From NCBI GenBank assembly GCA_964454835.1, contig CAYVTU010000011.1, positions 26,243 to 90,242 of the forward strand: a DNA stretch of 64,000 bases, written 5' to 3'. A model generated the notes under the pieces. The model ran no database searches. It was not told where the DNA came from and was given only the letters and a program-made list of their open reading frames with translations. Source of the stretch: an uncultured Brachyspira sp. Its GTDB lineage: Bacteria; Spirochaetota; JAAYUW01. The position numbers were made by a program, and so were the translations under genes. The stretch's first letter is position 1; each line of letters opens with the position of its first letter. Positions 1,183 to 60,423 of the stretch are shown one piece after another.

Positions 1183-2115
1183 TTACTTTGACTCCTCTAT
1201 CATTCTTTTTTTGATAGGCATAAGCTCGAGTATCTTATCCTCAATTTCCTTTAATTGGAGTGAAATTCTAGCATCAATTTCACCAAAATCTGTTTCTATG
1301 ATACATCCACCTCTTTCTATGGATGAATCTTCTAGGAATTGTATACCTTCTAATCCTTCGATCATCCTTATAAAATCCTCTTTATGCTTCGTAGCCATAC
1401 CTATATCTTCTAGATTTACTCTTATAATAACATTCTTAGAGCCTTTTACTTTTTTTAGTGCTTCAACAACATTGTTAATAATTACAGTTTTTTGATTCTC
1501 GGTAATTATTTTAATAATTTTTTTTACTATCAATAATACTATCGAAACAATTTGATATTCTGTTCCTTCTATTATTTCCTGTCTCTTTGCTATTACTTCA
1601 GAAATTATCTTATGCATTCTCTCTATAAGATGTTTAACTTCTTCTGAACCTTTATTAAATCCATCTTCATAACCCTGGTCATAACCTTGTTTTTTGTTTT
1701 CTTCAATTATCTCTTCACTCTTTTTTTCAGCAGTTTCTATTATCTGCTTCGCTTCTATTTTTGATTCATCTAGAATTCTTTGAGCTTCTTGCTTTATTTT
1801 TTCAATTTCTATATTTGCTTGAGCTTTTGATTCCTTTATTTTTGCAAATGCCAGATCTTCTGCTTTTTGGATTATCTGTTTTGCTTCAATATCTGCTTGA
1901 TTTTTAAGATTTTCATACTCTATTTTCCATTCTTGTTTCAATCTATCGATCTCAAGTTTTACATCTTCAATAGAAGGTCCCCTATAAACAGAAGTTTCAC
2001 CTGTTTTTTCTGTCCCTTCGGTGACTTCTTCTTTTGATTTCAATTTTGGTGGGGGAATTATATATTTTTTGTCAATTTTTCTAATTTCATCATTTTTTAG
2101 GACATTTTTCGCCAT
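1183..2115 (-). CDS. fliH: Flagellar assembly protein FliH (export ATPase regulator)
   Basis: Position between fliG and fliI. The central region is E/K-rich coiled coil, typical of long FliH forms. Its stop lies 2 nt before the fliI ATG. Confidence 0.6.
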   Translation of the reverse strand: MAKNVLKNDEIRKIDKKYIIPPPKLKSKEEVTEGTEKTGETSVYRGPSIEDVKLEIDRLKQEWKIEYENLKNQADIEAKQIIQKAEDLAFAKIKESKAQANIEIEKIKQEAQRILDESKIEAKQIIETAEKKSEEIIEENKKQGYDQGYEDGFNKGSEEVKHLIERMHKIISEVIAKRQEIIEGTEYQIVSIVLLIVKKIIKIITENQKTVIINNVVEALKKVKGSKNVIIRVNLEDIGMATKHKEDFIRMIEGLEGIQFLEDSSIERGGCIIETDFGEIDARISLQLKEIEDKILELMPIKKRMIEESK

Positions 2116-2130
2116 TTTTCATTCCTAAAA

Positions 2131-3162
2131 TTAATATATTATTTCATCTTCACTACCACGAGATATAGTGATTTCACCCGATTGTTCAAGTTTTCTTATA
2201 ATAGATACAATCTTTGATTGAGCTTCTTCAACATCCTTTAATCTTATTGGACCCATAAATTGCATGTCTTCTTTAAGCATTGTTGCTCCTCTTTTCGACA
2301 TGTTTCTGAATATTTTATCTTGAACTTCTGCTTCAACATTTTTTAATGCTTTTGCCAGATCGTTTGTATCTACTTCTCTAAGCAATCGCATAACTGAACG
2401 ATCATCAAGTTGAACAATATCTTCAAATACAAACATGTTTTTCTTGATCTCTTCTGCAAGCTCAGGATCTTCTTCTTCAAGTTTTTCAAGAATATTTTTC
2501 TGAGTAGTTTGATCTGAAGCATTAAGAATATTTACAGCAGCAGGAACGCCACCAACACTTGCAAACTCTTCTGAAGCTATAGCAGAGATCTGTCTTTCAA
2601 GAATTCTTTCAACTTCTCTTACTATTTCTGGTGATGTTCTATCCATTTTTGCTATTCTTCTAGTAACATCAGCCTGTAAAGTCGGATTTAACTGCTGCAA
2701 AATAGTGGCCGCTTTCTTTTGATCTAAATAAGATAAAATCAAAGAAATAGTTTGAGGATGTTCATTTTGAATAAAGTTTATAAGATGTTGTGGATCTGTT
2801 CTTCTAGCAAACTCAAATGGTCTTACAGCCATAGTAGTAGTTAGTCTGTTAATGATGTCTACTGCTTTTTGTGATCCAAGAGCCTTTTCAAGTAATTCTT
2901 TAGCATAATCTAAGCCACCAGTAGTAATAAAATCCTGAGCCATCATTAATTCCTGGAATTCCATTAGGACTTTATCTCTTTCTTCTGGATCTACCTTTTC
3001 TATTCTTGCTATTTCATAAGTAATTGAATCAACTTCTTCTTCTTTTAAATATTTTAATACCTGAGATGCTACTTCAGAACCTAAGGTAACAAGAAATATT
3101 GCTGCTTTTTTCTTTCCTGTTAGTTTTGTCTTTTCTTTTGTTTTAGGTGCAGCTTTTCCCAT
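2131..3162 (-). CDS. fliG: Flagellar motor switch protein FliG
   Basis: 343 aa. FliG-like N-terminal and C-terminal domains are recognisable. It sits in the conserved fliF-fliG-fliH order. Confidence 0.85.
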   Translation of the reverse strand: MGKAAPKTKEKTKLTGKKKAAIFLVTLGSEVASQVLKYLKEEEVDSITYEIARIEKVDPEERDKVLMEFQELMMAQDFITTGGLDYAKELLEKALGSQKAVDIINRLTTTMAVRPFEFARRTDPQHLINFIQNEHPQTISLILSYLDQKKAATILQQLNPTLQADVTRRIAKMDRTSPEIVREVERILERQISAIASEEFASVGGVPAAVNILNASDQTTQKNILEKLEEEDPELAEEIKKNMFVFEDIVQLDDRSVMRLLREVDTNDLAKALKNVEAEVQDKIFRNMSKRGATMLKEDMQFMGPIRLKDVEEAQSKIVSIIRKLEQSGEITISRGSEDEIIY

Positions 3163-3227
3163 TTTATTCCTCTTTTCTAATTTTTTTATTAAAACATTAT
3201 AATTTAGTTTAACAAAATCAATCAGTT

Positions 3228-4940
3228 TTAACCTACATCCTCAGCAAGCCATGTTCTAATAAGTTTAGCGACCTCTTCTGGATGTTCTCTTGCAACATTA
3301 ATTGCATTTTCCTGCATTTCAAGTCTAGCCTTTTCTTCCATAGAAAGCTCAACTTCAATTCCTTCTTTTTCAGCTGCTCTAAGGGCTTTTTCTCTAAGTT
3401 CCTGCTGCTTTCTGAGAAGTTCTTCTTCTTTAAGTTTTTTCCTTCTTTGAACTTCGGCTGAAATCACTCTATATAATACAATTATAAGAAGAAAAACTAA
3501 AATAGAAACAAATGATGTTATCAAAGCTTTTCTCAATAAATCTTTTCTTTTAATTATAGCATCTTCAGCTGCAAATTCTGCTTCATGGTTAAATGCTATA
3601 TTTTGAACTGTTACTAAATCACCCCTTGCCTTATCATATCCAATTGCACCTTTAACAACTTCTTCTATTTTACTTATATCTTCTTCTGAAAGTGGAGTAT
3701 ATTTTCTTTTGTATCCTAGTTTAGCTTTATCTACTACTAGATTACCTTTGCTATCTACCTCTATTTCCCATAATCCATCTACCATTACTGAACAGGATAT
3801 TTTCCCTATTTGATAAGGAGTCATAGAAGAAACAACTTTTTCTCTTGATAATTCATAATTTTTAGTCTGTTGATTTTCGTTTACAACAACCGAACTTGGT
3901 AAAAGTTCTTTATATCCTGGTGGGACATTAGGTTCTGTCCCTGGAGGACCTTCTGGTATTGTCTGAGGACCTTTATATTCTTTTTGTATACTCTGTTCAG
4001 AAATTGTGACATTTGGAACAACTACTGAGTCATCATAAGGGGTATTTGGGTTATCAGGTTTTATAACAACAGGAATTATTTTATTTGCTTCACTTTGTAC
4101 TTGATCGAATCTAATATCAATATCTAATTGAATATCTATCTTATTTTTACCTATTATTTTTTGAAGTTGTTCTCGAATTCTTTGCTCAATTTTTACTCTT
4201 TCTCTTTCTTTAATCTGAAGCTGTTGTTTAACTATTTCAAGATATGCTGCATTATCCTGAGAACTAAAATCAGAAACTATATTACCCGAAGGATCTGTTA
4301 TTACGACATTTTCTTCTTTAAGTCCAGGTATTCCAAAAGCAACAAGTTTCTTTATACCTTCAATTTGCTTCCTGTTTTCAAAAAGATTAGAATAAGGTTT
4401 TGGTATAATAGTTAAAGAAGCAGTAATTTCCTGTGTATTAGAGGTAAAAAGACTTTCTTTAGGCCATGCTATATTCAAATAACATTCCTCGACCCCATCA
4501 AGGAGTTTTAATTGCCTTTCAATTTCACCTTTTATTGCTCTTTTAAGATTAACATCTCTTTCAAAATCAGTTGTTGTCCATTTTTGAGTATCAAATAATT
4601 CCCAGCCTGTCACATTATTAGGAATTATTCCCTGCTGTCCTAGTTTCATTCTTAAAGTTTGAGCAGTTTTTTGATCCTTGACTATTATATATTTATCATC
4701 CTTAGTAGAAAAATCAGTATTCAAATCCTGCAAAGCCTTTGTAACTTTTGCATAATCTTCAGGTGAAAGTGGTTTTTGAAATAATAGAGTCTTATCGGGT
4801 TTTGATGAAAATCCTATTATAATTATTAATGCAATAACCACAACACCAATTACAGAAAATATTATGATTTTTTGTGTTTGATTTAATTTTGACAAATTTG
4901 ATGAGAAAAACTCACCAATTTTTTTGAAAAAATCTGCCAT
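3228..4940 (-). CDS. fliF: Flagellar MS-ring protein FliF
   Basis: About 570 aa, with an N-terminal TM segment, a large periplasmic region and a C-terminal TM. The likely start is ATG at 4940 (MADFFKK). The ORF track extends to a TTG at 4952 through a G9 run. Confidence 0.85.
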   Translation of the reverse strand: MADFFKKIGEFFSSNLSKLNQTQKIIIFSVIGVVVIALIIIIGFSSKPDKTLLFQKPLSPEDYAKVTKALQDLNTDFSTKDDKYIIVKDQKTAQTLRMKLGQQGIIPNNVTGWELFDTQKWTTTDFERDVNLKRAIKGEIERQLKLLDGVEECYLNIAWPKESLFTSNTQEITASLTIIPKPYSNLFENRKQIEGIKKLVAFGIPGLKEENVVITDPSGNIVSDFSSQDNAAYLEIVKQQLQIKERERVKIEQRIREQLQKIIGKNKIDIQLDIDIRFDQVQSEANKIIPVVIKPDNPNTPYDDSVVVPNVTISEQSIQKEYKGPQTIPEGPPGTEPNVPPGYKELLPSSVVVNENQQTKNYELSREKVVSSMTPYQIGKISCSVMVDGLWEIEVDSKGNLVVDKAKLGYKRKYTPLSEEDISKIEEVVKGAIGYDKARGDLVTVQNIAFNHEAEFAAEDAIIKRKDLLRKALITSFVSILVFLLIIVLYRVISAEVQRRKKLKEEELLRKQQELREKALRAAEKEGIEVELSMEEKARLEMQENAINVAREHPEEVAKLIRTWLAEDVG

Positions 4941-4941
4941 A

Positions 4942-4950
4942 CCCCCCCCC
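4942..4950 (-). repeat. Homopolymeric G9 (C9 on the + strand) directly upstream of, or at, the fliF start
   Basis: Read directly: ccccccccc at 4942-4950, in an otherwise very AT-rich region. Confidence 0.9.
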
Positions 4951-5053
4951 AATAAAAAAGCAGATATTATCTATCTAATTTATTAACCTTTACTCCCTTA
5001 AAGGTTATAAAATGTTATTTTTTATATTATTTTGCTCTTTATTCTTTACTTCC

Positions 5054-5082
5054 TTATATAGATTTTACTTATATAGATTTTA
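5054..5082. repeat. Tandem direct repeat in the fliE-fliF intergenic region: 2 x TTATATAGATTTTA with a 15-nt period
   Basis: Read directly at 5054-5067 and 5069-5082. Confidence 0.8.
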
Positions 5083-5130
5083 ATTTAATTTTTTTTTATT
5101 TCTATTAATTTCATCTTTTTTCTAATTTTT

Positions 5131-5508
5131 TTAACGAATATTAATCAATTCTTTATAACCAGTAATTAATTTATTAATAACTGACTTTGTAAGATTTAAT
5201 GCAATTTCTGCTTCTTTAGCAGCTATTGTAACATCGTCTATATTTGTGTTATCGGGATCTTCAATCAATTGTTGTTGAAGTAGTTCTGCATTGACAATTG
5301 CCATATTTGTATCATTGATGGATTTTGTCAAATAATTCAAAAAAGTCGGTGAACTAGAGTTATCTTTTTCAATATAATTAAAATGCTTTGGTGAAGTCGA
5401 ATTCATCTTAACTTTATGACCCGACGGATTAATAGAAGAAACATTTAAAACATTTGGAGCTTCGACTCCTCTGACAATACTTGAAATTGAATTAAAATAC
5501 TGTTGCAT
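5131..5508 (-). CDS. fliE: Flagellar hook-basal body protein FliE
   Basis: The C-terminal region matches the FliE consensus (…AIVNAELLQQQLI…AKEAEIALNLTKSVINKLITGYKELINI). It lies between flgC and fliF. A GGGGGAGGGG SD precedes the ATG. Confidence 0.7.
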   Translation of the reverse strand: MQQYFNSISSIVRGVEAPNVLNVSSINPSGHKVKMNSTSPKHFNYIEKDNSSSPTFLNYLTKSINDTNMAIVNAELLQQQLIEDPDNTNIDDVTIAAKEAEIALNLTKSVINKLITGYKELINIR

Positions 5509-5609
5509 CCCCTCCCCCTACTAAAAAAAATAAATCATTTTATATATTATAAAAATATAAAAATGTTTAACATAATTTTTTAAACAATTTCATATTTATA
5601 TATAAAACA

Positions 5610-6059
5610 TTATTTTAATATGTCAATACTTTTCATATATAATTGTTTAGCATTTGTTATAACAACACTATTTGCTTCGTAACTTCTTGAAGCACTTATT
5701 AAATCTGTCATTTCTTTTACAACGTTTACATTAGGCATCATCACATATCCTTTTTTAGGACCAGATTGAATTGCATCGGGATGATTAGGGTCCCATACAA
5801 GTCTAAAAGGGGACTCATCTGCTTCTATTTTTACAACTTTAACACCTTTCCCAATGCTATTTTCATAACCAGGCGGGGTAAATGGAGAAAGAAATTGAGG
5901 TTGTTCATCATAAGTTCTGAAAATAACCATCTTCCTTTTATATGCTCCTCCCTCAGGAGTTCTAGTTGTATTTGCGTTTGCAATATTGTTAGCAATAACA
6001 TCCATTCTTAGTCTTTGAGCTGACAATCCAGTAGAAGCTATATTAAATGCTCCAAGCAT
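5610..6059 (-). CDS. flgC: Flagellar basal-body rod protein FlgC
   Basis: N-terminus MLGAFNIASTGLSAQRLRMDVIANNIANANTT is the canonical FlgC rod motif. Confidence 0.85.
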   Translation of the reverse strand: MLGAFNIASTGLSAQRLRMDVIANNIANANTTRTPEGGAYKRKMVIFRTYDEQPQFLSPFTPPGYENSIGKGVKVVKIEADESPFRLVWDPNHPDAIQSGPKKGYVMMPNVNVVKEMTDLISASRSYEANSVVITNAKQLYMKSIDILK

Positions 6060-6087
6060 GATTTTACCTTTTTAGAGATTTAACTAA

Positions 6088-6095
6088 ATATCGGT
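6088..6095 (-). promoter_or_regulatory. Possible sigma28-type -10 element (ACCGATAT) upstream of flgC; the -35 element is weak
   Basis: The minus strand reads tACCGATATtt about 30 nt upstream of the flgC ATG. It matches the -10 seen at fliS and at the 13711 gene, but there is no good TAAA at N15. Confidence 0.25.
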
Positions 6096-6157
6096 AAAAT
6101 AGAAAATTTGATAATAGAAAAATTAAAAATATTTTTAAATTTTGAAAAATTTTTAAT

Positions 6158-7084
6158 TTATAAATTTTGAAGTTTTTTAATCATTAACGCTATTTTAGAT
6201 GCTACCTCTGTATTATTATATATTAAAGACATATTTGATTTTAAAGTTCTACCTTTACTTAAAAAAGAAAGCTTTTCCAGTAAATATGGTGTAACATCCT
6301 TTCCAGATATGTTTTTATTCTCTAATTCAATTATTGAAGAATCAATTATTTTTGAAATTTCAGAAAAAAGTATCTCATCTTTTTCTGGTATTGGATTAAC
6401 AACAAGAATAGTACTTGTCATTCCTATATTTTTATTAAAGATATATGAATTGGCAATTTGCTTTTCATCTTCTGCTACCAGTTGAAGTTTAATGCCTGAA
6501 TATCTAGAATAAAAAGCTGGAAAATCATCTGTTTTGTAGCCAATAACAGGGATTTCAAAGGTTTCTAAAATTTCTATTGTCTTAGGAATATCTAAAATCG
6601 ACTTACAACCCGCGCATACAACGATGCCAGAATATTTAGATAAGGCATGAACATCAGCAGAAATATCAAAAGTTTTTTCTGCATTTCTATGAACTCCACC
6701 AATACCACCAGTAGCAAAACAGTCAATTCCAACCAGGCTAGCAAGATATAATGTTGCTGCTACTGTTGTTCCTGCATTAAGTTTTTTTGAATAGCAATAT
6801 CCAAGATCTTTTGTAGATGATTTAAATGATTTAGAAGAATTTTTAGCAAGCATCTCTATTTCATCATCACTTAATCCAATTTTTGGAATCCCTTGAATAA
6901 TTCCAATGGTAGCTGGAATAACACCATATTCTCGGGCAATTTTCTGGCATTTCTTAGCAACTTCAAGATTTGTGGGATATGGTAATCCATGGGTAATTAT
7001 AGTTGATTCCAATGCAATAATAGGTTTTTTTTCATCTAATCCATTTTTTACTTCATCTGAAATCTTTAAAAATTCCATTTTCAT
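6158..7084 (-). CDS. psuG: Pseudouridine-5'-phosphate glycosidase
   Basis: IIALESTIITHGLPYPTNLEVAKK…IPATIGIIQG matches the PsuG (indigoidine synthase A-like) N-terminal signature. Confidence 0.8.
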   Translation of the reverse strand: MKMEFLKISDEVKNGLDEKKPIIALESTIITHGLPYPTNLEVAKKCQKIAREYGVIPATIGIIQGIPKIGLSDDEIEMLAKNSSKSFKSSTKDLGYCYSKKLNAGTTVAATLYLASLVGIDCFATGGIGGVHRNAEKTFDISADVHALSKYSGIVVCAGCKSILDIPKTIEILETFEIPVIGYKTDDFPAFYSRYSGIKLQLVAEDEKQIANSYIFNKNIGMTSTILVVNPIPEKDEILFSEISKIIDSSIIELENKNISGKDVTPYLLEKLSFLSKGRTLKSNMSLIYNNTEVASKIALMIKKLQNL

Positions 7085-7196: not shown

Positions 7197-8120
7197 TCAT
7201 ATATTATTAATTTTATATAGATAATCCAGTACTTTTTCCATTCCTATAGTTATAGATTCCTTTATTGAAAAGCCATTCGCAATCGATTCTACAACTTTTG
7301 CGAACAAAAAATCCCCTGCGCCAGTTGTGTCTTTAGTATCCAATACTCTGGAAGGCTTGAAAACAAAAGAATTTTTATCTTTTTTCTTATATAAAATTGC
7401 TCCATCTGGTCCTTGTGTCTTTAATATATATTCTATATTTTGCTTTTCCATATATTCAAATACTGAGGTATTGCCTTCTACTAAAGAATTGAATTCATGG
7501 ATATCGGGTGAAGTAAAATAAATATCTTTTAAAACTTCTTTTGCCCTTTTTGCTTTTTCCATTGAAATTGTTTCAAAAAAAATCTTACATTTTTTAGTCT
7601 TTAATTTTAATAAAATTTTTTCTAATTCAAAATTGTCTATATTAGAATCAAGAATGCAAATATCTTTTTCTTCAATCTTTTCAAGAAATGGCAAAATATT
7701 TGAAAAATTAAGATTTTCTTCTATAATCCTAAAATCAGCGGTTGCAACATAGCAATCACCATTTTCCATAAGAGTATTATATATGGAAGTCGGGTATTTT
7801 TCTGACATTAAAAATATTATTTTAGGAATATTATCAATAATATTTTTTTCAATATTTTTAATATTTGAAATATCTTCAATCGTTGCTATATTAACTTCTT
7901 GATTATCTATATTATTAACAATAATTTTTCCAAAAGGATCATTTCCAATAATTGAAATAAAAAGTTTTTGTTTTATTTCTAGAAATTTAAAAATATTATA
8001 CCCTACTCCACCAATTCTATAATTGAATCTAGATGGATTTGAGGTCCCTCTTGAAAACTTTTCTTTTGTAAATATAAAATCACAGGATATTCCACCAAAT
8101 ATATATATCTTTTTGACTCT
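7197..8120 (-). CDS. psuK: PfkB-family carbohydrate kinase, probably pseudouridine kinase. The full-length frame has no canonical AUG at its 5' end.
   Basis: The track ORF 7197..7808 carries the C-terminal PfkB motif DTTGAGDFLF. The same frame is open upstream to a TAA at 8121-8123 and encodes a PfkB N-terminus (…KKIYIFGGISCDFIF…RIGGVGYNIF…ISIIGNDPFGKII). It is adjacent to psuG. Confidence 0.6.
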   Translation of the reverse strand, partial: RVKKIYIFGGISCDFIFTKEKFSRGTSNPSRFNYRIGGVGYNIFKFLEIKQKLFISIIGNDPFGKIIVNNIDNQEVNIATIEDISNIKNIEKNIIDNIPKIIFLMSEKYPTSIYNTLMENGDCYVATADFRIIEENLNFSNILPFLEKIEEKDICILDSNIDNFELEKILLKLKTKKCKIFFETISMEKAKRAKEVLKDIYFTSPDIHEFNSLVEGNTSVFEYMEKQNIEYILKTQGPDGAILYKKKDKNSFVFKPSRVLDTKDTTGAGDFLFAKVVESIANGFSIKESITIGMEKVLDYLYKINNI

Positions 8121-8314: not shown

Positions 8315-8623
8315 CTATTTTTCTGTAAAAGAATAAAGCCACTTTGAATACTTAAACGAAGCTATTACTTTATCTTTTGGGAAACTCAAGACTTTTTTCA
8401 GGTTTGTTTTCATAGAAGAAAAGTCTTTAGTTCTCTTTAATATACTTGAAGGTGAAGAAATAAATGGATAACCCGTATTTATCCTGATAAACCAATGTGT
8501 CGCTCCCTGACTTATTGCTCCTGGTGGAATTATATAGAAACCAGTAAAAAAATAAAAAATAAAAAGCAAAACCAGAATAAGAATAATCAAAAATCCAAAG
8601 AAATTTTTACTCTTTCTTCTCAT
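8315..8623 (-). CDS. Small membrane protein, function unknown
   Basis: 102-aa ORF with one hydrophobic helix. No recognisable family. Confidence 0.35.
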   Translation of the reverse strand: MRRKSKNFFGFLIILILVLLFIFYFFTGFYIIPPGAISQGATHWFIRINTGYPFISSPSSILKRTKDFSSMKTNLKKVLSFPKDKVIASFKYSKWLYSFTEK

Positions 8624-8809
8624 AATTTTTTCCTATTTTGTAATCAATTGTCTTCAGAAAATATTTTAATTTAATTTATCAAAAAAGAAAGAGTTGATAA
8701 AATTTTTATGATAAGTTTTAATGATATTATTGTCTTATTTAGTTATTTTTCTGCAATTAAAATTTAATATAAGATAATTTAATGAGGTCTTATAAATTAT
8801 TAATTAGAT

Positions 8810-9150
8810 TGGAGGTGGGGAGAGTCGAACTCCCGTCCTACAAGGTTTGATAATCGATATCTACATGCTTATGAATTTTTTAATCTCGTTTATTTCAGGG
8901 AAAATCCCAAACCTGAAATAAGCCAGTCTGTAAATTTACTTTCATCTTCCAGACAGAGATGAAAGTTTGCTTCTGTTGTCGGGGGAAGTTCTGAAACCAG
9001 AAGCAATCTCAGACTTCCCTGCTGCGCTTAATTAGGCAGCAAGTGCTAATGAATTGTTGTCAATTCGTTTTTTTCTGCGGTTTTAAGACATACAGAAAGT
9101 CTGCATGCAATCCATTACCTTGCCTTACAGTCGAAACCAGATTCACCCCC
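8810..9150 (-). ncRNA. ssrA: tmRNA (transfer-messenger RNA)
   Basis: On the minus strand the 5' end GGGGGTGAATCTGGTTTCGAC… pairs with the 3' end …GGACGGGAGTTCGACTCTCCCCACCTCCA (a tRNA-like acceptor and T-arm; CCA is not encoded). An internal tag reading frame ends …GACAACAATTCATTAGCACTTGCTGCCTAA, i.e. …DNNSLALAA-stop. Confidence 0.85.
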
Positions 9151-11084: not shown

Positions 11085-13544
11085 TTATTCTTTCACTATA
11101 AAATTAATTATTTTATCCTGCACAAAAACAATGTTCTGTATTTTTTCTTCATTGACATATTTACTTACATTTGCTTGTTTTAAGCTTTCTTCCGAAACCA
11201 TCTCTTTATTTGAACCAGAAGGCATATCAATGGTTGCCCTTTTCTTACCATTTACCATTATAGCATAAGTGACAACATTATCTATAATTTTCTGAGAATC
11301 ATATTCTGGCCAGAGTGCTTCTCTTTTTCCAATAGGCAAAAATATAGGTTTACTATCTCCAACTCTTTCCCATAAATGCTCTGCAAGATGAGGTGCAAAA
11401 GGTGAAAGCAGGATAACATATTTTTGTGCAACTATTCTAGGTATTGAAGAAATTTTTATAAGTTCATTTAAAAGTATCATTAAAGCAGAAATTGCAGTGT
11501 TATATGCTGAAATAGATTCTATATCTTCTGATACTTTTTTAATTGTTTTATTTAATAGTTTATCAATTTCTTCTGGTAAAGTTTGAGAATTTAAGTCAAC
11601 TTTTATAAAATAAGAATAGACCCTTTCTAAAAATCTTCTTATTCCACCTATAGAATTTTTATTCCATGGCTTCGAAGTTTCCAAAGGCCCCATGAACATT
11701 TCATACATTCTAAATGTATCTGCGCCATATTCTTTAACTATATCATCAGGATTGATAACATTTCCTCTAGATTTAGACATCTTTTGATTATCTTCTCCAA
11801 GAATAATTCCTTGATTTCTCAATTTGATAAAAGGTTCAGCTGAATTTACAAGTCCCAAATCAAACAAAAACTTATGCCAGAATCTTGCATAAAGAAGGTG
11901 CAATACAGCATGTTCCTTCCCTCCCACATAAATATCTACTGGCATCCAATAATTTTGTTTTTGAATTGAAGTAAATTCTTTATCATTATGCGGATCAGTA
12001 TATCTCAGATAGTACCAACAGCTTCCAGCCCAGTTAGGCATTGTATTTGTTTCTCTTTCGGCATCTAAACCGCATTTAGGACATTTTACTTTAACCCAGG
12101 ATTCTACTTTGGCTAGTGGCGAATTTCCATCTCCAGATGGTTCATAAGATTCAACCTGAGGAAGTAACAGTGGAAGTTCGGTTTCTTTTAATGGTACATG
12201 ACCGCACTTTGGACAATTTATTATTGGAATTGGTTCTCCCCAATATCTCTGTCGGGAAAAAATCCAGTCTCTTAACTTATAGGTTACGGCAAATTTCCCT
12301 TTACCAATTTTTGTAAGTTTTTCTATTATTTTTTTTGTGCATTCTTTTGTTGTCAAATTTGAAAATTCGGCACTATTTATAGAAAAACCTTCCTCAACAA
12401 AAGCTTCCTTTAATTCATAGGTCTTACCTAATTCATTTGTAACGACTTGAATTATAGGAAGATCAAACTTTTTAGCAAATTCAAAATCTCTTTCATCATG
12501 GCCAGGAACAGCCATTATCGCACCTGTACCATACTGTATAAGTATATAATCTGAGATAAATATTGGTATTTTCTTACCTGTCAAAGGATGTATAGCATAA
12601 GCACCAGTAAAGGCACCGGTCTTATCTTTATTTAATGATGTTCTTTCGAGATCAGACTTATTTGTGGCTTCTTTTTTATATTTTGCTATAACCTCTTTTT
12701 GAGAAGTTGTTGTAATTTCATCCACAATGGGATGTTCAGGAGCAAGAACAAGATAAGTAGCACCATAAAGAGTATCAGCTCTTGTTGTGAAAACTTCTAT
12801 TTCCTTATCTTTTCCTTCAATATCAAATTTGATAATTGCACCTTCTGATCTACCTATCCAATTTCTTTGCATAGTTTTAATATCTTCTGGCCAATCAACC
12901 AGATCCAAATCTTTTAGCAATCTTTCTGCATAAGCTGTTATTTTTAATATCCATTGATCTATAAGTCTTCTTTCAACTGGTGTTCCACATCTTTCGCATT
13001 TTCCATCAACTACCTCTTCATTTGCAACGCCAGTTTTACAGGATGGACAATAATTTATAGGTGCTTTAGATTTATAAGCAAGACCTTTTTCAAAGAGTTT
13101 TAAAAATATCCATTGTGTCCATTTAAAATATTCTGGGTCAGTCGTACTGAATGACCTTGACCAATCATAAGAAAAACCAAGTGATTTTATCTGTTTAGTA
13201 AATGTTTTAATATTTTTTTCTGTTGTAACAGAAGGATGAATTTTAGTCTTTATTGCATAATTTTCTGCTGGTAAACCAAAAGAATCAAATCCCATAGGAT
13301 GAAGAACATTAAATCCTTTTAGTCTATAATATCTTGATAATATATCTGTGGCTGTATAACCTTCAGGGTGACCTACATGCAATCCTTCACCAGAAGGATA
13401 AGGAAACATATCGAGTATATATATTCTTTTATCTTTTGAATAAGATTCATCTTCCTTTACTTCGTTGCATTTGTTTTCTTCCCAATATTTTTGCCATTTC
13501 TGTTCGATTTCAGTATGATTATAGCTTTCCATATAATACCTCAT
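11085..13544 (-). CDS. leuS: Leucyl-tRNA synthetase
   Basis: 819 aa. The HIGH region (PYPSGEGLHVGH) and KMSKS are present, with the length and architecture of LeuS. Confidence 0.95.
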   Translation of the reverse strand: MRYYMESYNHTEIEQKWQKYWEENKCNEVKEDESYSKDKRIYILDMFPYPSGEGLHVGHPEGYTATDILSRYYRLKGFNVLHPMGFDSFGLPAENYAIKTKIHPSVTTEKNIKTFTKQIKSLGFSYDWSRSFSTTDPEYFKWTQWIFLKLFEKGLAYKSKAPINYCPSCKTGVANEEVVDGKCERCGTPVERRLIDQWILKITAYAERLLKDLDLVDWPEDIKTMQRNWIGRSEGAIIKFDIEGKDKEIEVFTTRADTLYGATYLVLAPEHPIVDEITTTSQKEVIAKYKKEATNKSDLERTSLNKDKTGAFTGAYAIHPLTGKKIPIFISDYILIQYGTGAIMAVPGHDERDFEFAKKFDLPIIQVVTNELGKTYELKEAFVEEGFSINSAEFSNLTTKECTKKIIEKLTKIGKGKFAVTYKLRDWIFSRQRYWGEPIPIINCPKCGHVPLKETELPLLLPQVESYEPSGDGNSPLAKVESWVKVKCPKCGLDAERETNTMPNWAGSCWYYLRYTDPHNDKEFTSIQKQNYWMPVDIYVGGKEHAVLHLLYARFWHKFLFDLGLVNSAEPFIKLRNQGIILGEDNQKMSKSRGNVINPDDIVKEYGADTFRMYEMFMGPLETSKPWNKNSIGGIRRFLERVYSYFIKVDLNSQTLPEEIDKLLNKTIKKVSEDIESISAYNTAISALMILLNELIKISSIPRIVAQKYVILLSPFAPHLAEHLWERVGDSKPIFLPIGKREALWPEYDSQKIIDNVVTYAIMVNGKKRATIDMPSGSNKEMVSEESLKQANVSKYVNEEKIQNIVFVQDKIINFIVKE

Positions 13545-13647
13545 ATTTTAATATAATTTTTTTTCTTAACTAACTTGAAATAAAAAATATTTTATTTTAT
13601 TTTGATGTCAATAGAAAAGTATTATATAGAAAGTATCATATTGCTAT

Positions 13648-13674
13648 TAAATGAATTAGATTAATTACCGATAT
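13648..13674 (+). promoter_or_regulatory. sigma28/sigmaD-type promoter: TAAA-N15-ACCGATAT
   Basis: TAAA at 13648-13651, a spacer of exactly 15 nt, then ACCGATAT at 13667-13674. It lies 37 nt upstream of the ATG at 13711. Same architecture as the fliS promoter in this window. Confidence 0.45.
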
Positions 13675-13710
13675 TTGAGGTAATGAAATAAAAAATATTC
13701 AGGAAGTCTT

Positions 13711-14736
13711 ATGCAAAAATTGATTAATCCAGATAATAATGATCTTATCTATGGTAAAATTGATGAAGAAATAATTATAAACTATAAAGATTATGAATTA
13801 AGATCGATTTTTGATAATAAACTACCCTCAATAATTCAAAAATATAGATTTCACAAATTTAATTTCGTTTTATTAATAACAGATACTCATGTTTTTGGAA
13901 TAGGAATAGTTGGTCTTTCCTATATCTCTAATATATTTATATTTTCCTATTCATTTCAAGATAAAGAATTTTTTGAAACAGATAGAAAAATCCCATTCGA
14001 AAAAAATCTTAAATATCCTGTTGATCCAGAAAATTTTATTATTTCATACAAAACAAAAAATGATTCATTGATTATAGAAAAAAATAAAATAAACTCAGAA
14101 TTAATTATAAAAGCTAATTTTAAAAATTTTATCGATATTGATTCCAAGTTTTTTTATGGAGCAAAAACAAATAATCCCTTAAGAATATGTGCACCAAATG
14201 GAGTTAATTGTTGGACTTTTACCGAAAAATGCACTGGCATTGAACCAACTTATTTGAAAATTAAAATCAAAGATAAGATTATTCAACCCGATATATCGAA
14301 AACAACTCTATTATACGATTGGTCATGTGGATATATGAAAAGGCTTACAAACTGGCATTGGGCTGCGTTTTCTGCTGTTGATCCAAATTTAAAGATGACT
14401 TTAGGGGGAAATTTTGCCTCTTTTATCAATGAAACATATATAACTGAAAATGCTTTCTGGGTTGACCACCAGATGAATAAGTTGAATCAGGTCATTTTCA
14501 GATTTGAAGATAATGATCCAAATAAAAATTGGTATATTAGTAGTGATGATAATAGAATAAAAATAACATTTGTTCCAATCAAATCAAGGATTCAAAAATT
14601 AAATGCGGGATTTTTAAAAATATATTTTAGACAATATTTAGGAATTTTTTCAGGAACTTTAAATACAGATAGTAAAAAAGAGATTCAGTTTGAAAATGCA
14701 TGGGGTGTTACTGAAATTCAGAGAGCTCTCTGGTAA
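13711..14736 (+). CDS. Uncharacterized 341-aa protein (no recognisable catalytic motif), apparently under a sigma28-type promoter
   Basis: Long clean ORF, Trp-rich in the C-terminal half. No TM segment or signal peptide is obvious. Confidence 0.6.
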   Translation: MQKLINPDNNDLIYGKIDEEIIINYKDYELRSIFDNKLPSIIQKYRFHKFNFVLLITDTHVFGIGIVGLSYISNIFIFSYSFQDKEFFETDRKIPFEKNLKYPVDPENFIISYKTKNDSLIIEKNKINSELIIKANFKNFIDIDSKFFYGAKTNNPLRICAPNGVNCWTFTEKCTGIEPTYLKIKIKDKIIQPDISKTTLLYDWSCGYMKRLTNWHWAAFSAVDPNLKMTLGGNFASFINETYITENAFWVDHQMNKLNQVIFRFEDNDPNKNWYISSDDNRIKITFVPIKSRIQKLNAGFLKIYFRQYLGIFSGTLNTDSKKEIQFENAWGVTEIQRALW

Positions 14737-15720
14737 TTAAAAATAACCTTGAGGGAATAGAATAACATCTTCTATTTTTTCTTTACATAATAAAATCATA
14801 ATCAGTCTATCAATTCCAAGAGCAATTCCACTGGTTTGAGGCATTCCTTTTTTCAAGTTTTCAATAAATCTATTATCAAGATGGTATTTATTCATTTTTT
14901 TTTCTTCTCTTATTTTCAGTTCTTCCTGGAATCTTTTTTCCTGTTCAAATCCATCAGTAAGTTCATCAAAGCCATTTGCAAGTTCTATACCTTGAATATA
15001 TAACTCAAATCTTTCAGCTATTTTATCAGAACCTTTTCTTAGTTTAGCCAAAGAAGCCTGATAATAAGGGTATCCACAAAGGAAAACAGCTTTTTTCTTT
15101 TGTAAAAATGGTTCAATCTTTGTTACCATATCTATATCAAATCTCTTGGGATCAAAAGTTTCAATAGGGTCCCATCCGCAAAGCTGTTTATAAATATCTC
15201 TTATTTCAATCTTCTCAAAAGGAAAATTTAAAGACGAAAATAAATTCTCGCACTTCTTTTTATCTATTTCATAATTAGGAGTGGATTCAAGAAATTTTTG
15301 AATCATTTCAATTTCTAGTTTAATAATTTGCTCACAATCGCTCATTATCTTTTCTATTGAACTATTTTTTCTATACCATTCACACATAGTAAATTCTGTT
15401 TGATGTAAATCTGAACAATTTTCTTTTCTAAAGCATTTTATAATTTGAAATATTTTATCGTATCCTGCCATAATCAAAAGCTTCATCTGTATTTCAGGAG
15501 AAGCTATTAAAAATCTTTCCTCACTTTTAAATGTTTCTATATTTGATTCAGGTGCGGGTGATTTTATTCTTATAGGAGTATCAACTTCGATGAAATTTTG
15601 CTGGGTAAAATATTCTCTTATTACTTTATAAAATTCCATTCTTAGCTTAGAAATTACTTTTTTTCTTTCTAAAATGAACCTTTCTTTTTCAACCAAAATA
15701 ATCTCTTTATCATCTGTCAT
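14737..15720 (-). CDS. epmA: EF-P lysine beta-lysyltransferase (GenX/PoxA-type truncated class II LysRS paralogue)
   Basis: RFELYIQGIELANGFDELTD and GMPQTSGIALGIDRL match EpmA class II motifs. At 327 aa it lacks the anticodon-binding domain. Confidence 0.8.
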   Translation of the reverse strand: MTDDKEIILVEKERFILERKKVISKLRMEFYKVIREYFTQQNFIEVDTPIRIKSPAPESNIETFKSEERFLIASPEIQMKLLIMAGYDKIFQIIKCFRKENCSDLHQTEFTMCEWYRKNSSIEKIMSDCEQIIKLEIEMIQKFLESTPNYEIDKKKCENLFSSLNFPFEKIEIRDIYKQLCGWDPIETFDPKRFDIDMVTKIEPFLQKKKAVFLCGYPYYQASLAKLRKGSDKIAERFELYIQGIELANGFDELTDGFEQEKRFQEELKIREEKKMNKYHLDNRFIENLKKGMPQTSGIALGIDRLIMILLCKEKIEDVILFPQGYF

Positions 15721-18336: not shown

Positions 18337-18714
18337 TTATTTATGTAGTAAAGAATTACTAAGCTTTTTATAAACTTCTAAATTTAAATAATAATCAGTA
18401 TAATCACCAAACTCATGATATTTAATCAAATCTTGATAATCTTCTTCTTTAATATCCTTATTTATTTTATAAAATATATCAAATTTATATTCTTTTTCTA
18501 TGTAGTATTTTGGTTCAATTAATTCAAACTCGTTTTTTTCAATTATTTTAATATCCTTTTCATCATTGCTCATTGAGGTCTTTCTTGAATTTTTAACGAT
18601 AATAAAAGTAAAAATTGAAGATAAAACAACAATAATTATTATTATAATAATCGCAATTATTTTTATAGACTCATCTGGGAAAAGATAGTTTAAAAAATCT
18701 TTTAGTTTTTTCAT
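18337..18714 (-). CDS. Small membrane-anchored protein, unknown
   Basis: 125 aa with a single TM (IIAIIIIIIIVVLSSIFTFIIV). Confidence 0.35.
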   Translation of the reverse strand: MKKLKDFLNYLFPDESIKIIAIIIIIIIVVLSSIFTFIIVKNSRKTSMSNDEKDIKIIEKNEFELIEPKYYIEKEYKFDIFYKINKDIKEEDYQDLIKYHEFGDYTDYYLNLEVYKKLSNSLLHK

Positions 18715-47660: not shown

Positions 47661-48011
47661 TTCTTAGCTTTTTAATATTTAATTTATCTTTTTAATAAAA
47701 TTAATTAACTGGGTCATAAGTAATACTTAATTTTTCCTTTAGTTTATGTGAATTTTAGTTTAAAGTGAATTTTACTTATCTTCTATTCAATGTGTTCAAA
47801 GATTAGTGATTATTTATTTTTTTAATAACTAATTTATTGTTGAAAACAATATTAGATTTTTTAAAACATGGAAACTTACGAATAATTTCAATAAGAAGTC
47901 ATATCAAAATTAAAATATAAAAGAATTTTTCTTTAAAATTTAAGAATTTTTAATAGTTTTTCTCAACAAATAAATCTATTGATTACAATATTCAGATTTT
48001 TAGCAAATAAT

Positions 48012-48869
48012 TTACTTTCCGATAAAATTTTGTAATATTTTACAGTTATCTATATCCTCGTGATAATCATCGCTTTTTTCAGTTTCTAATAAAAATGGAA
48101 TGTCTTGAAAATATTCAAAATTAATAAAAAACTTAAATGCATCTAATCCTATAAATCCTTTACCTATATGTTCATGTCTATCTTTTTTTGAGGATAATGG
48201 ATATTTTGAATCATTTACATGAATAGCCTTAATTTGTTTTAATCCTATAATCTTATCAAATATTGCCATAGTATTATTAAATGATTTTTCATCTCTAATA
48301 TCATATCCCGCAGAAAATGTATGGCAGGTATCGTAACATACTCCAAAAGATGAAGTTGATTTTACGTGGGATATTATGTAAGCTATATCTTCAAAACTAT
48401 TTCCAAGATTTGAACCCTGTCCAGAAGTAGTTTCTATAAGTATCATAACATTAGATGGTATTTTTATTGAATTGAAAGATTTAATGACCTGTTCTAATCC
48501 CTTTTCTACCCCAAATCCCATATGGGAACCTGGATGAATTACATAATATGGAATATTATATAAATGACATCTATCAAGTTCATCCTGTATCGATATCAGA
48601 CTTTTTTCAAGTATTTCTTTATCGAAAGATGCAAGATTAATCAAATATGAAGCGTGTGCAACAATTTTAAAAAAAAATTGATCTTTTATTTTTTTATTGA
48701 AATCTTCTATATCTTTTATATCTGGCGCTTTAGAATTCCATCTTGTTGCATTTTTAGTAAAAATTTGAAGGGAATGAAATCCAAGATTTTTAGCAATATT
48801 TAAGGCAAAAACTAACCCGTTTTTAATAGAAATATGCGAACCAAATCTTCTATCGAATTCTATTATCAT
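48012..48869 (-). CDS. nfo: Endonuclease IV (AP endonuclease, xylose-isomerase-like TIM barrel)
   Basis: HASYLINLAS and other metal-binding His/Asp/Glu positions of the Nfo family. 4-nt overlap with fliS. Confidence 0.8.
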   Translation of the reverse strand: MIIEFDRRFGSHISIKNGLVFALNIAKNLGFHSLQIFTKNATRWNSKAPDIKDIEDFNKKIKDQFFFKIVAHASYLINLASFDKEILEKSLISIQDELDRCHLYNIPYYVIHPGSHMGFGVEKGLEQVIKSFNSIKIPSNVMILIETTSGQGSNLGNSFEDIAYIISHVKSTSSFGVCYDTCHTFSAGYDIRDEKSFNNTMAIFDKIIGLKQIKAIHVNDSKYPLSSKKDRHEHIGKGFIGLDAFKFFINFEYFQDIPFLLETEKSDDYHEDIDNCKILQNFIGK

Positions 48870-49318
48870 ATTTTATAATTAAATGATGAACCTTCTGAAC
48901 TATCATTTGATGTTTGTTTTTTAACAGTGTCCTTCTTTTCAAGTTCTGCCCATGCAGTCCTTAACTCGGAAAGAATTTTTACAACATTTGCAAGCATATC
49001 AGGATCTTTTTTTATATTTCCCTCTATCATCTCTTTCATACAATAATCATAAATAGCAAATAAATTTTGAGCAATTTCTCCACCTTGTTCAAAGTCTAAT
49101 GACAACATTAATTCAGAAACTATATCTTGAGCTCTTATTATATTATTGTTAATCAAATCATATTTAATAGATTTCTTTTTAATAAATTCAATTGCAGTAT
49201 TAAGACTTACAATTGCTTTATCATAAAGCATAATAACAAGCTGAATTGGGCTTGCTGTTTTGACTTTCATCTCAAGATAGCTTTGAGCTTGTTTGTTATC
49301 TGACAATGTAACCCCCAA
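48866..49318 (-). CDS. fliS: Flagellar export chaperone FliS
   Basis: SYLEMKVKTASPIQLVIMLYDKAI matches the FliS N-terminal consensus (…TASP…L..MLYDGA). Apparent TTG start. Confidence 0.7.
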   Translation of the reverse strand: MGVTLSDNKQAQSYLEMKVKTASPIQLVIMLYDKAIVSLNTAIEFIKKKSIKYDLINNNIIRAQDIVSELMLSLDFEQGGEIAQNLFAIYDYCMKEMIEGNIKKDPDMLANVVKILSELRTAWAELEKKDTVKKQTSNDSSEGSSFNYKI

Positions 49319-49336: not shown

Positions 49337-49363
49337 TTATCGGTATTTTTTCAAAGGATTTTA
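49337..49363 (-). promoter_or_regulatory. sigma28/sigmaD-type promoter: TAAA-N15-ACCGATAA
   Basis: The minus strand reads TAAA (49363-49360), a 15-nt spacer, then ACCGATAA (49344-49337), about 20 nt upstream of the fliS start. Confidence 0.55.
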
Positions 49364-49390: not shown

Positions 49391-51130
49391 TCAACAAAAT
49401 AAGAAATCTGTATATTTTATTAAAAATTCAATCGCAAGTCTTTGCGATTTTTCTTTATCACTATACTTAAAATAATAGTAAGAAACAATGTTAAAAAAGT
49501 AATTTTGTACTACTTCTCTATTATTTAAATATTTTTTATCTTTTTCAGTATTTTTTTCAAAAAAAATTTCAAGTTTTTTTTCTTTTATTTTTTCCCATTC
49601 TTCCTGATATTTCTCAAATAAAAACCTTTCTCCCTTTTTTATGCATGTAATTACAGATTTATTTTGAGTTGAACTTAAGTAAGTTTGTCTAGTATTATGA
49701 AAATTATAAAAATATGAATTAGAATAGTAATATTTTTTCTCAGCCATCGAAAAATCTATTCCATAAGTTTTAATTTCTTTAAATCCAAGATAATCTGCAA
49801 CAAGATATGAAAAAGCACCAACATTTTGAACTTCAATTGAAAATAAAGGAATATTACAGAAAAAAGAACCTAATAAATTTAATTTATTGATTATTTTTTG
49901 AAAATTAATATTTTTTAATTCTTTTTCTTTTCTATACATAATAAATGCTTCCACAAAACCTATTATGTCTTCAAAATATTTGAGTGAAAACAAATAGATA
50001 TTATTAAAATTTTTTAAAACCTTTTTTGAAACAGATAAAGGTACAATTACTGGTATTTTCTTAAATTCTTCTGCAAGACCAACCAACATTAAACTTAAAA
50101 TATTTCTACTATCAAGAATTATAATCAAATCTGGCAATATTTTGTTTGCTAAGAAAAAGTTTATTGCATTATCAACACAAATTACAAAACTACTTTTTAC
50201 TTTTCTTTTTTCAATTAATTCATCTTTAATCGAAATTTTATCCAATGAAGGAGAAGCTCCGACAATTATAGCAGTCTCATAATATTCTTTTTTCAAAGAT
50301 TTAATATTATTATTTTTTTTAATTTTGTCTACTATATCCTTGTTAGATATAATAGAATTAATGTTAGACAAAGTATTTCCTAATTCAATTTTAAAATTAA
50401 TTATAAATGATTTAATATTAAAAATTACTTCTTTTCTGAAATCATCCCATTCTCTTTCTAATTCATTTAAATTTTTTTGTAATAGACAATTGATATTTTC
50501 TTTTCTAACTATTTTATCTATTAAAATAGGATTAAAAATATTTGCGTACTCATTTATAAAAAATGATTTTAATTTTGGATAATTATTTATTCCTTTGATA
50601 TAAATATGGATATTATTATTTAAGAATATTTGATAAATTTCCATATAACAGCATGCTAGAAGAAATAGATCTAAGTCAAAATCTATTAATATAAAATAGT
50701 ATTTGGTATTTTTCTTATTTTCAATAATATCAAAATCTGAATTAATATTTTCATTTTTATTATTACTTATTGTTTTTAAGCCATAAAGTGAATATAAGAA
50801 TCCTATCCCAAAAATTTCGAAACATATATCATTATTTGTATATTCTTCAATTTTTATTGCTTCTCTTTTTGGATTATATGAAGAATGTATTTTTCTATTT
50901 GAAGATCTTTCAACAGGAATAAATAAGTTGTCTTCTAACTTAATAATCTCGTATTTTCCCTTTATTTTAATTATGTAATTGGCAAGCAAATTAAAATCAT
51001 CTTCTAAATCTATATTAAATGAAAGTTTTTCATTAAAATATATATTTTTAAGAATATCACTAAAATAAGGTCTAATCCTGGAAATTATTGAAATATTTTC
51101 TTTCAAAAGATTCTTATTAATATCAACCAT
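49391..51130 (-). CDS. Motility accessory factor (Maf/DUF115, MptE-like) probably involved in flagellin glycosylation
   Basis: Core motif AIIVGASPSLDK…FVICVDNAINFFLANKILPDLIIILDS matches the DUF115 signature. 579 aa. Adjacent to fliS. Confidence 0.55.
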   Translation of the reverse strand: MVDINKNLLKENISIISRIRPYFSDILKNIYFNEKLSFNIDLEDDFNLLANYIIKIKGKYEIIKLEDNLFIPVERSSNRKIHSSYNPKREAIKIEEYTNNDICFEIFGIGFLYSLYGLKTISNNKNENINSDFDIIENKKNTKYYFILIDFDLDLFLLACCYMEIYQIFLNNNIHIYIKGINNYPKLKSFFINEYANIFNPILIDKIVRKENINCLLQKNLNELEREWDDFRKEVIFNIKSFIINFKIELGNTLSNINSIISNKDIVDKIKKNNNIKSLKKEYYETAIIVGASPSLDKISIKDELIEKRKVKSSFVICVDNAINFFLANKILPDLIIILDSRNILSLMLVGLAEEFKKIPVIVPLSVSKKVLKNFNNIYLFSLKYFEDIIGFVEAFIMYRKEKELKNINFQKIINKLNLLGSFFCNIPLFSIEVQNVGAFSYLVADYLGFKEIKTYGIDFSMAEKKYYYSNSYFYNFHNTRQTYLSSTQNKSVITCIKKGERFLFEKYQEEWEKIKEKKLEIFFEKNTEKDKKYLNNREVVQNYFFNIVSYYYFKYSDKEKSQRLAIEFLIKYTDFLFC

Positions 51131-58859: not shown

Positions 58860-60423
58860 ATGGAGAATATTATGCAACCAATTAAAAATGCCATAACAGA
58901 AGGAAGGCTTATAAATTTAGAAGGCTTATCAAAAGATGAAGTCTTAAAAACATTATCTTTTGCTATTGAAAAAAGTAAGCAAACTCCCCCTGAATTAGAT
59001 ATTTATAAATCTATCTTAGATAGAGAGATGATTACAAATACATATCTTGGATTTAATATTGCATGTCCTCATACCAGAATTCCATGGGAAGGAGAGATTT
59101 TATGTTCTATAGGCTGGAATCATGAAGGTATATTATATAATTCAGCGACAAACGATAGTGCTAAGCTAGTTTTTCTTTTTATTATTCCTAAGAATAAAAG
59201 CAATGAATATTTAAATATGATTGCCTCATTAATTAAATTTTTAATGAAATTTGAAAAATTGAGAGATTTCGAGAATATTTATGATTTAAATGCTATCCAA
59301 TCAAGAATACTTGAATGGATTTATATTATAGAAAACCCAGAGAATGATGAAATTGATACTATTTCTGCCCACGCTAACATGTCTTTAATCATTGATATGA
59401 TACTTCCAGACATAAAGGAGTTAATTGAAGCAAAAAGATTTAGTAAATTACAAAAGTTTATAAATGAACAGGATTCAGTAGAAATAGCAGAAATCATGAA
59501 CTGCTTAAATATTGAATCATCAACTATAATATTTAGAATTTTATCAAAATCAAAAGCAGAGGAAATTTTTTCTTTGCTTGAAAGTGAAGCTCAGAACAAT
59601 TTAATCAATAATCTAGCAAAAGAAGAGATTGTCAGATAATATATAGCATGGCTTCTGATGATAGGACAATGCTATTAGAAGAATTACCAGTAAAAATTGT
59701 TCAGCAAATTCTTGATCTTTTTGATAAAAATGAAAGAAAAAAGGTTCTTACTCAATTAAACTACCAGGAAGATAGTATTGGTAGATTATTTTCTAATAAA
59801 TATATCTCAGTATACTCATATGTAATGGTTAAAGATGTATTGGAGCATATCAGAAAGAAAGGAATTGATTCTGAAAGTATAGAAATGATATATGTTACAA
59901 ATGAAAAAGGTAAGCTAATTGATGATCTTTCACTAAGGAAAATAATTCTTGCAAATCCTGAAACTCCATTGGAAGAAATTTTTGATTGTCATTTTGTTTC
60001 CCTATACTCCAATCAAGATAAAGAAGAAGCTGCCCAGATATTTAAAAAATATGATATGTATGCTATGCCAGTAGTTGATTCTGATGGTATGCTTATTGGA
60101 ATAGTTACTAATGATGATATAATAGATGTAGTTGATGAGGAAGCAACTGAAGACTTTCACAAAGGTAGTGCATTTTACTATTAGAAAAAAAATTTTTAAA
60201 TACACCAATAATGGATCTATGGAAAAGCAGGATTTCCTGGTTTATTGTTCTTATATTTATTAATATTTTTTCTGGTGCTGGTCTAGCTCATTTTGAAAAC
60301 TTAATCCAATCTGTGGTCGCTCTTGTATTTTTTCTTCCTTTACTTGTAGACAGTGGAGGTAATGCTGGTGCTCAATCAGCAGGATCCAAAGAATTAATTT
60401 TCATTGAGACTACTCTTAAATAA
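58860..60423 (+). pseudogene. mgtE: Disrupted Mg2+ transporter gene mgtE with an N-terminal PTS EIIA-2-like domain. It is split over three frames and truncated in the TM domain.
   Basis: ORF1 has an EIIA-2-like core (…FNIACPHTR…LVFLFIIP…) plus the start of MgtE_N. ORF2 (59648-60184) continues MgtE_N plus the CBS pair in a different frame. ORF3 (60211-60423) begins the TM domain (…LLVDSGGNAGAQSA) and stops after 70 aa. Only 167 nt remain before the next gene. Confidence 0.55.

Follow-up and report, generated by a model that had tools for sequence, protein, structure and literature searches.

A conserved sigma-28-type promoter in front of a DUF2804 gene in Exilispira-like spirochaetes suggests co-regulation of an enzyme-like protein with flagellar genes

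The 64-kb stretch of DNA analyzed here (the window; G+C content about 27%) has its closest relatives among MAGs labeled Exilispira sp., "Spirochaetales bacterium" or Brachyspira, and the Brachyspira label carried by some of these is apparently a mislabeling. The window opens on flagellar genes in the order flgC-fliE-fliF-fliG-fliH, read on the minus strand from 6059 to 1183, followed by psuG and a pfkB-type kinase gene. Beyond these lie a small membrane ORF, a tmRNA gene, an [FeFe] hydrogenase gene, leuS on the minus strand and, on the plus strand, a gene for a DUF2804 protein, past which epmA, ffh, a gene for a TPR protein and smc are all found on the minus strand. This local gene order is kept in six related genomes (L001-L006), and within the conserved block about 7.6 kb separates the DUF2804 gene from the flgC operon. 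The features of the DUF2804 locus and of the tmRNA gene are as follows.

8809-9150, minus strand: tmRNA gene (Rfam RF00023, 159.5 bits), tag peptide AEKNELTTIH
13648..13651, plus strand: TAAA, -35 element of the sigma-28-type promoter, invariant in 7/7 aligned genomes
13667..13674, plus strand: ACCGATAT, -10 element, 15 nt past TAAA, with CGATAT invariant in the 7 genomes
13701..13706, plus strand: AGGAAG, ribosome-binding site, 4 nt before the ATG, with AGG invariant in the 7-genome alignment
13711..14736, plus strand: DUF2804 gene, monocistronic, encoding 341 aa with a predicted AttH/CrtC-like double beta-barrel fold

Several smaller observations concern the neighborhood of these genes. The long gap that separates the hydrogenase gene from the small membrane ORF is for the most part taken up by the tmRNA gene. 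In the window, as in L081, the ORF of the pfkB-type kinase (7197-7808, minus strand) encodes 203 aa; in L082-L084 it is called at 304 aa, a difference that could come from a frameshift, from another start or from truncation of the N-terminus. Farther along, two adjacent ORFs at 58860-60184 (plus strand), the first carrying PTS_EIIA_2 and the first half of MgtE_N and the second the rest of MgtE_N with CBS, look like one split gene, or a frameshift. The stop codons of the DUF2804 gene and the convergent epmA abut (14736/14737). As 13400-15000 contains no predicted terminator-like site, a sigma-28 transcript of the DUF2804 gene could read antisense into epmA and ffh. A DUF2804-EpmA gene pair was suspected from a convergent 327-aa gene that also abuts DUF2804 in L009 and L019, and was ruled out when the abutting genes in those two loci proved to encode MobA-like nucleotidyltransferases rather than EpmA.

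The sequence-only reading of this locus had proposed a near-perfect sigmaD/sigma28 promoter, TAAA-N15-ACCGATAT, in front of the ORF at 13711. The arrangement is present, with a gap between the -10 element and the ATG of 36 nt rather than the 37 nt originally given. With TAAA, a 15-nt spacer and a -10 element of the form (G/A)CCGATA(A/T), the segment at 13648-13674 conforms to the sigma-28 promoter class, and it stands in the sense orientation and at promoter distance from a gene that has a ribosome-binding site. A sigma-70-type scan of 13400-15000 produced matches no commoner than in shuffled sequence, none of them conserved before the DUF2804 gene. The strict pattern TAAA-N16-CCGATA occurs twice in the window against an expectation of 0.18, and for CCGATA alone the count is 17, with 7.1 expected. 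Only three of these 17 copies are intergenic; all three are in the sense orientation and directly precede the DUF2804 gene, fliS and flgC, and the absence of any further intergenic CCGATA in the 64 kb bears out the earlier impression, formed by eye, that there were no other non-coding copies. Taken by themselves, such counts would leave some room for a chance match without function, as TAAA is common in DNA of 27% G+C and at least two strict matches, the number seen, are reached by 3 of 100 dinucleotide shuffles of the window.

Comparison with relatives is more informative on this point. An orthologous DUF2804 gene is found in the six related genomes at 55-75% identity, and in these TAAA-N15-nCCGATAT lies 54-82 nt before the ATG, with AACGATAT taking the place of the -10 element in L005. 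In the alignment of the upstream regions from all seven genomes, mean column identity is 57%, and the only invariant blocks are TAAA, CGATAT with a following T, the AGG of the ribosome-binding site and the ATG; the longer CCGATAT is present in six of the seven, the exception being ACGATAT in L005. The motif is retained even where the neighboring genes have changed: in L001 four extra minus-strand genes separate leuS from the DUF2804 gene, and in L005 a different plus-strand gene lies upstream. Boxes that are conserved at orthologous loci between flanks that have diverged form the footprint expected of a functional promoter rather than of neutral retention, and the proposal of a sigma-28-type promoter is to that extent borne out. 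A chance match is hardly credible when six further genomes keep the boxes in the same place with respect to the ATG, and when, as described below, intergenic CCGATA is found almost exclusively before flagellar genes and the DUF2804 gene.

The flagellar genes available for comparison were the flgC operon, fliS and fliD, the flaB, flgK/L, flgM and che genes of the lineage lying outside the sequence covered. Their features are listed here.

1183..6059, minus strand: start of the large flagellar operon, flgC-fliE-fliF-fliG-fliH (NCBIfam matches)
6088..6095, minus strand: ACCGATAT, -10-like element 30 nt before flgC, with TTAT replacing TAAA at -35
48866..49318, minus strand: fliS, flagellar export chaperone (TIGR00208, 87.4 bits)
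49337..49363, minus strand: TAAA-N15-ACCGATAA, sigma-28-type promoter of fliS, in-window reference site, with the second strict match at 49363-49338
L087 16608-16613, L088 12318-12323 and L090 16611-16616: CCGATA sites of fliD

The full motif is present at fliS, in the 72-nt gap directly before the gene, as the sequence-only reading had also noticed. It is kept in four relatives, as TAAA-N15-(A/T)CCGATAA in L125, L127 and L128 and with GACGATAA at -10 (ACGATAA) in L126. The start codon of fliS itself is probably the TTG at 49306, giving a protein of 146 aa, judging from a database protein (P0133) that is 99% identical and of that length. Directly upstream of fliS, in the window (49391-51130, minus strand) as in L125-L128, lies a gene for a 579-aa protein with an MptE-like domain (DUF115, Maf-type) that may be a flagellin-modification enzyme.

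At flgC and fliD only the -10 element is present. The recurrence of the -10 box before flgC had likewise been recorded from the sequence, and TTAT-N16-CCGATA precedes this gene in all four genomes compared (window, L002, L003 and L004). Before fliD, the -10 element takes the form (G/A/T)CCGATA(T/A), as GCCGATAT, ACCGATAT or TCCGATAA, in 3/3 genomes and is not accompanied by TAAA at -35; in L085 and L086, which are more distant relatives, fliD has only degenerate -10-like elements. Since the fliD sites lack TAAA and the flgC site carries TTAT, what stays constant in this lineage's promoter class seems to be the -10 box. In Treponema, too, operons for the hook and motor have sigma-28-like promoters, which would fit the site at flgC.

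By extending the window through L081 and L082, contigs whose FliH is identical to that of the window, the flagellar operon could be followed through fliI-fliJ-fliK-flgD-flgE-flbD-motA-motB-fliL-fliM-fliY. The operon opens with flgC without an adjoining flgB (window 5610-7084, minus strand; likewise L002, L003 and L004), and the upstream neighbor of flgC in the window and these three relatives is psuG (Indigoidine_A family); in most bacteria, and also in Borrelia, the gene immediately before flgC is flgB. After fliM-fliY and before fliD lie three conserved genes (L087 12075-16438, with equivalents in L085, L086 and L090). The first and third, for products of 206 aa and about 833 aa, have no Pfam match, and the second encodes a cNMP-binding protein (about 415 aa); all three may be lineage-specific flagellar accessory genes.

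The specificity of the -10 box for flagellar genes extends to the rest of the sequence examined. In the window and its same-species extensions, 4/4 intergenic CCGATA copies are in the sense orientation, 20-114 nt before flgC, fliS, fliD and the DUF2804 gene. Across 224 kb from relatives, 13 of 19 intergenic sites are at one of these four genes, and three of the other six fall between orf102 and hydA, an interval that in the window holds the tmRNA gene, so that these copies probably lie inside the tmRNA gene. No such motif was found upstream of two MCP genes (in L125 and L126). These MCP genes lie between nfo and branched-chain amino-acid ABC transporter genes (L125 11285-13099 and L126 11294-13075, both minus strand), and the window has no MCP gene at the corresponding place (about 47661-48011).

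Related promoters have been described in other spirochetes. The PflaB2 promoter of T. denticola has -35 TTAA and -10 CCGATAA with an experimentally mapped start site, and flaB1 and flaB2 of Brachyspira are sigma-28 dependent (PMC9481697). A survey reports Borrelia as the only spirochete group without sigma-28, although it does not name Exilispira (PMC11607428), and our literature searches on Exilispira or Brevinema for flagellar or fliA content returned nothing useful. The motif could in principle be functional and yet be read by another alternative sigma factor, or by a DNA-binding regulator shared by these genes, rather than by FliA. In agreement with this, tblastn with an approximate E. coli FliA query gave no fliA match in about 0.3 Mb of lineage loci, a small part of any genome and therefore weak negative evidence; an flhA-flhF-flhG-fliA module was absent along an operon walk through FliH and FliM homologues to fliD; and the retention of the CCGATA half only at flgC and fliD would also suit a single-box binding site. 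We nevertheless regard such a regulator as improbable, because at the DUF2804 gene and fliS two boxes with an exact 15-nt spacer match the sigma-28 consensus in many genomes, because the sites occupy a promoter-like place, 20-60 nt before start codons, and are always in the sense orientation, and because sigma-28 is reported in all spirochete groups other than Borrelia. Two candidates for FlgM in the window, the ORFs at 8315-8623 and 18337-18714, were rejected, as both encode small membrane proteins.

The product of the gene belongs to a recognizable family, contrary to what was first thought. The 341-aa ORF matches Pfam DUF2804 (PF10974) with 154.4 bits against a cut-off of 26.9 (E = 5.8e-45), residues 42-341 aligning to profile positions 37-339 of 339. 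This is its only Pfam match; NCBIfam models gave none, and neither collection indicates homology to a flagellar or chemotaxis family. The protein was correctly described as lacking a TM segment and a signal peptide, as no N-terminal signal peptide or TM helix was detected and a hydrophobic stretch at residues 50-82 is modeled as beta strands. The predicted structure, with which Foldseek agrees, consists of two consecutive antiparallel beta-barrel/sandwich domains characteristic of the AttH/CrtC-like superfamily. It resembles AttH (2ICH), kievitone hydratase/CrtC (7A0Q), a 25-phosphosteroid lyase (9FZN) and the Diels-Alderases Fsa2, Phm7 and CghA (7E5T, 7DMO and 6KBC) in fold, but at sequence identities of only 5-12%. 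Searching PDB sequences with a profile gave no match, and the relationship is therefore visible at the level of the fold only. Among the enzymes with AttH/CrtC-type folds are hydratases, lyases and pericyclases whose substrates are hydrophobic (isoprenoids, polyketides and steroids, for example), and by analogy the substrate here is probably lipid-like or otherwise hydrophobic. The polar residues that are invariant in an alignment of 13 sequences (R158, K173, D203, Y208, R211, N234, N240, E241, E246, N247, R293, Q308 and E335) are consistent with those expected of an enzyme. The modeled protein thus has the features of an enzyme more than those of a flagellar component, a role we infer from fold resemblance at 5-12% identity together with a weak context.

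DUF2804 is widespread, with 368 confirmed stretches in species-representative genomes. Among spirochetes, close homologues were found only in the Exilispira-like lineage, the next matches being proteobacterial proteins of about 32% identity, and the gene is therefore not a member of the common spirochete flagellar gene set. None of 74 non-spirochete DUF2804 loci has flgC, fliF, fliG, fliI, flgE, motA, motB or fliM within 10 kb, and CCGATA lies within 250 nt upstream at just one of the 56 such loci with a defined start, that one being unconvincing. Judged from these loci, the sigma-28 link is not a property of the DUF2804 family as a whole. A Hydrolase_4 alpha/beta hydrolase gene lies directly upstream of DUF2804 in two Desulfobacterales loci, and other contexts vary. 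P. aeruginosa PA3342, which belongs to the same Pfam family as the window protein, is induced 15-fold in the glycerolipid regulon of GliR, an AraC-type regulator for which its promoter has a binding site, and is controlled together with glycerolipid-metabolism genes and not by sigma-28 (PMC8151288). Pseudomonas homologues are about 28% identical to the window protein over the full length, and their loci have no CCGATA upstream, unlike the window gene.

These results divide the original proposal, in which an unclassified protein under a sigma-28 promoter was put forward as a candidate new member of the motility regulon: the promoter part holds, and the idea of a familyless flagellar, chemotaxis or late-class motility factor does not. 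One could still imagine that the DUF2804 protein is itself an undescribed factor of that sort, either structural or acting on the motor or filament, as its gene has a conserved promoter of the class common to fliS, flgC and fliD, is part of the same conserved block as the flgC operon, and shows conserved promoter elements of the sigma-28 type only, with no conserved sigma-70 hexamers. We consider this unlikely. The protein has an enzyme-type AttH/CrtC fold resembling no flagellar protein, it matches no flagellar Pfam or NCBIfam model, and it represents a widespread family that elsewhere is associated with flagellar neighbors at none of the loci and with the sigma-28 -10 element at one, its close spirochete homologues having been found in one lineage only.

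We favor instead, with a probability of roughly 0.6, a sigma-28-type promoter that reflects a lineage-specific recruitment of a DUF2804 enzyme to the sigma-28 regulon rather than a new flagellar component. RNA polymerase carrying FliA would bind TAAA and ACCGATAT, 15 nt apart, and begin transcription at about 13681, some 7 nt past 13674, producing a monocistronic mRNA with a leader of about 30 nt that includes AGGAAG. Its translation would yield a soluble cytoplasmic DUF2804 protein of 341 aa. With a promoter class in common with fliS, and a -10 element in common with fliD and the flgC operon, the gene would be switched on together with these flagellar genes. The product would then most likely be a co-regulated enzyme of lipid or hydrophobic small-molecule metabolism, and not a structural flagellar or chemotaxis component.

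A bolder and more tentative version, which we think possible but doubtful, is that the AttH-fold enzyme is a dedicated part of the motility program in Exilispira-like spirochetes, with sigma-28 as its sole conserved promoter and a product needed for building or using the periplasmic flagella. The molecule in question could be a modified lipid, or an isoprenoid-like or other hydrophobic compound, and might serve, for example, in remodeling the envelope around the flagella or as a motility-linked signal. If true, this would provide a first physiological handle on the DUF2804 family.

For the favored reading, recruitment of the enzyme to the sigma-28 regulon, the consequences are more modest. Should the promoter be FliA-dependent, the little-studied Exilispira lineage would use a sigma-28 class that reaches even the basal-body operon, a non-flagellar, enzyme-like gene would be added to the sigma-28 regulon, and a testable expression condition would be available for a widespread family of unknown function. 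The value of the locus thus lies mainly in the clue it gives to DUF2804 expression and in the evidence on flagellar gene control in an unstudied spirochete lineage.

In comparison with known systems, the promoter resembles the spirochete sigma-28 promoters of T. denticola PflaB2 and Brachyspira flaB1 and flaB2: two boxes with -35 T(T/A)AA and -10 CCGATA(A/T), a short distance before the gene, and the presence of the same class before flagellar genes of the same genome. Those promoters serve flagellins, whereas the gene served here encodes a DUF2804 enzyme-like protein, and its sigma-28 dependence is suggested by the conserved boxes. Sigma-28 regulons are also known to include non-flagellar members, among them the autolysin genes lytC, lytD and lytF under SigD in B. 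subtilis, the FliA targets ycgR and yhjH in E. coli, and hctB under sigma-28 in Chlamydia. For these genes, connections to motility, cell separation or development are established; we know of no such link for DUF2804. As regulons of this composition are well known, the locus reveals no new kind of system, and what it would share with the examples above is a gene without a structural flagellar role that is co-transcribed with motility genes by way of its promoter class.
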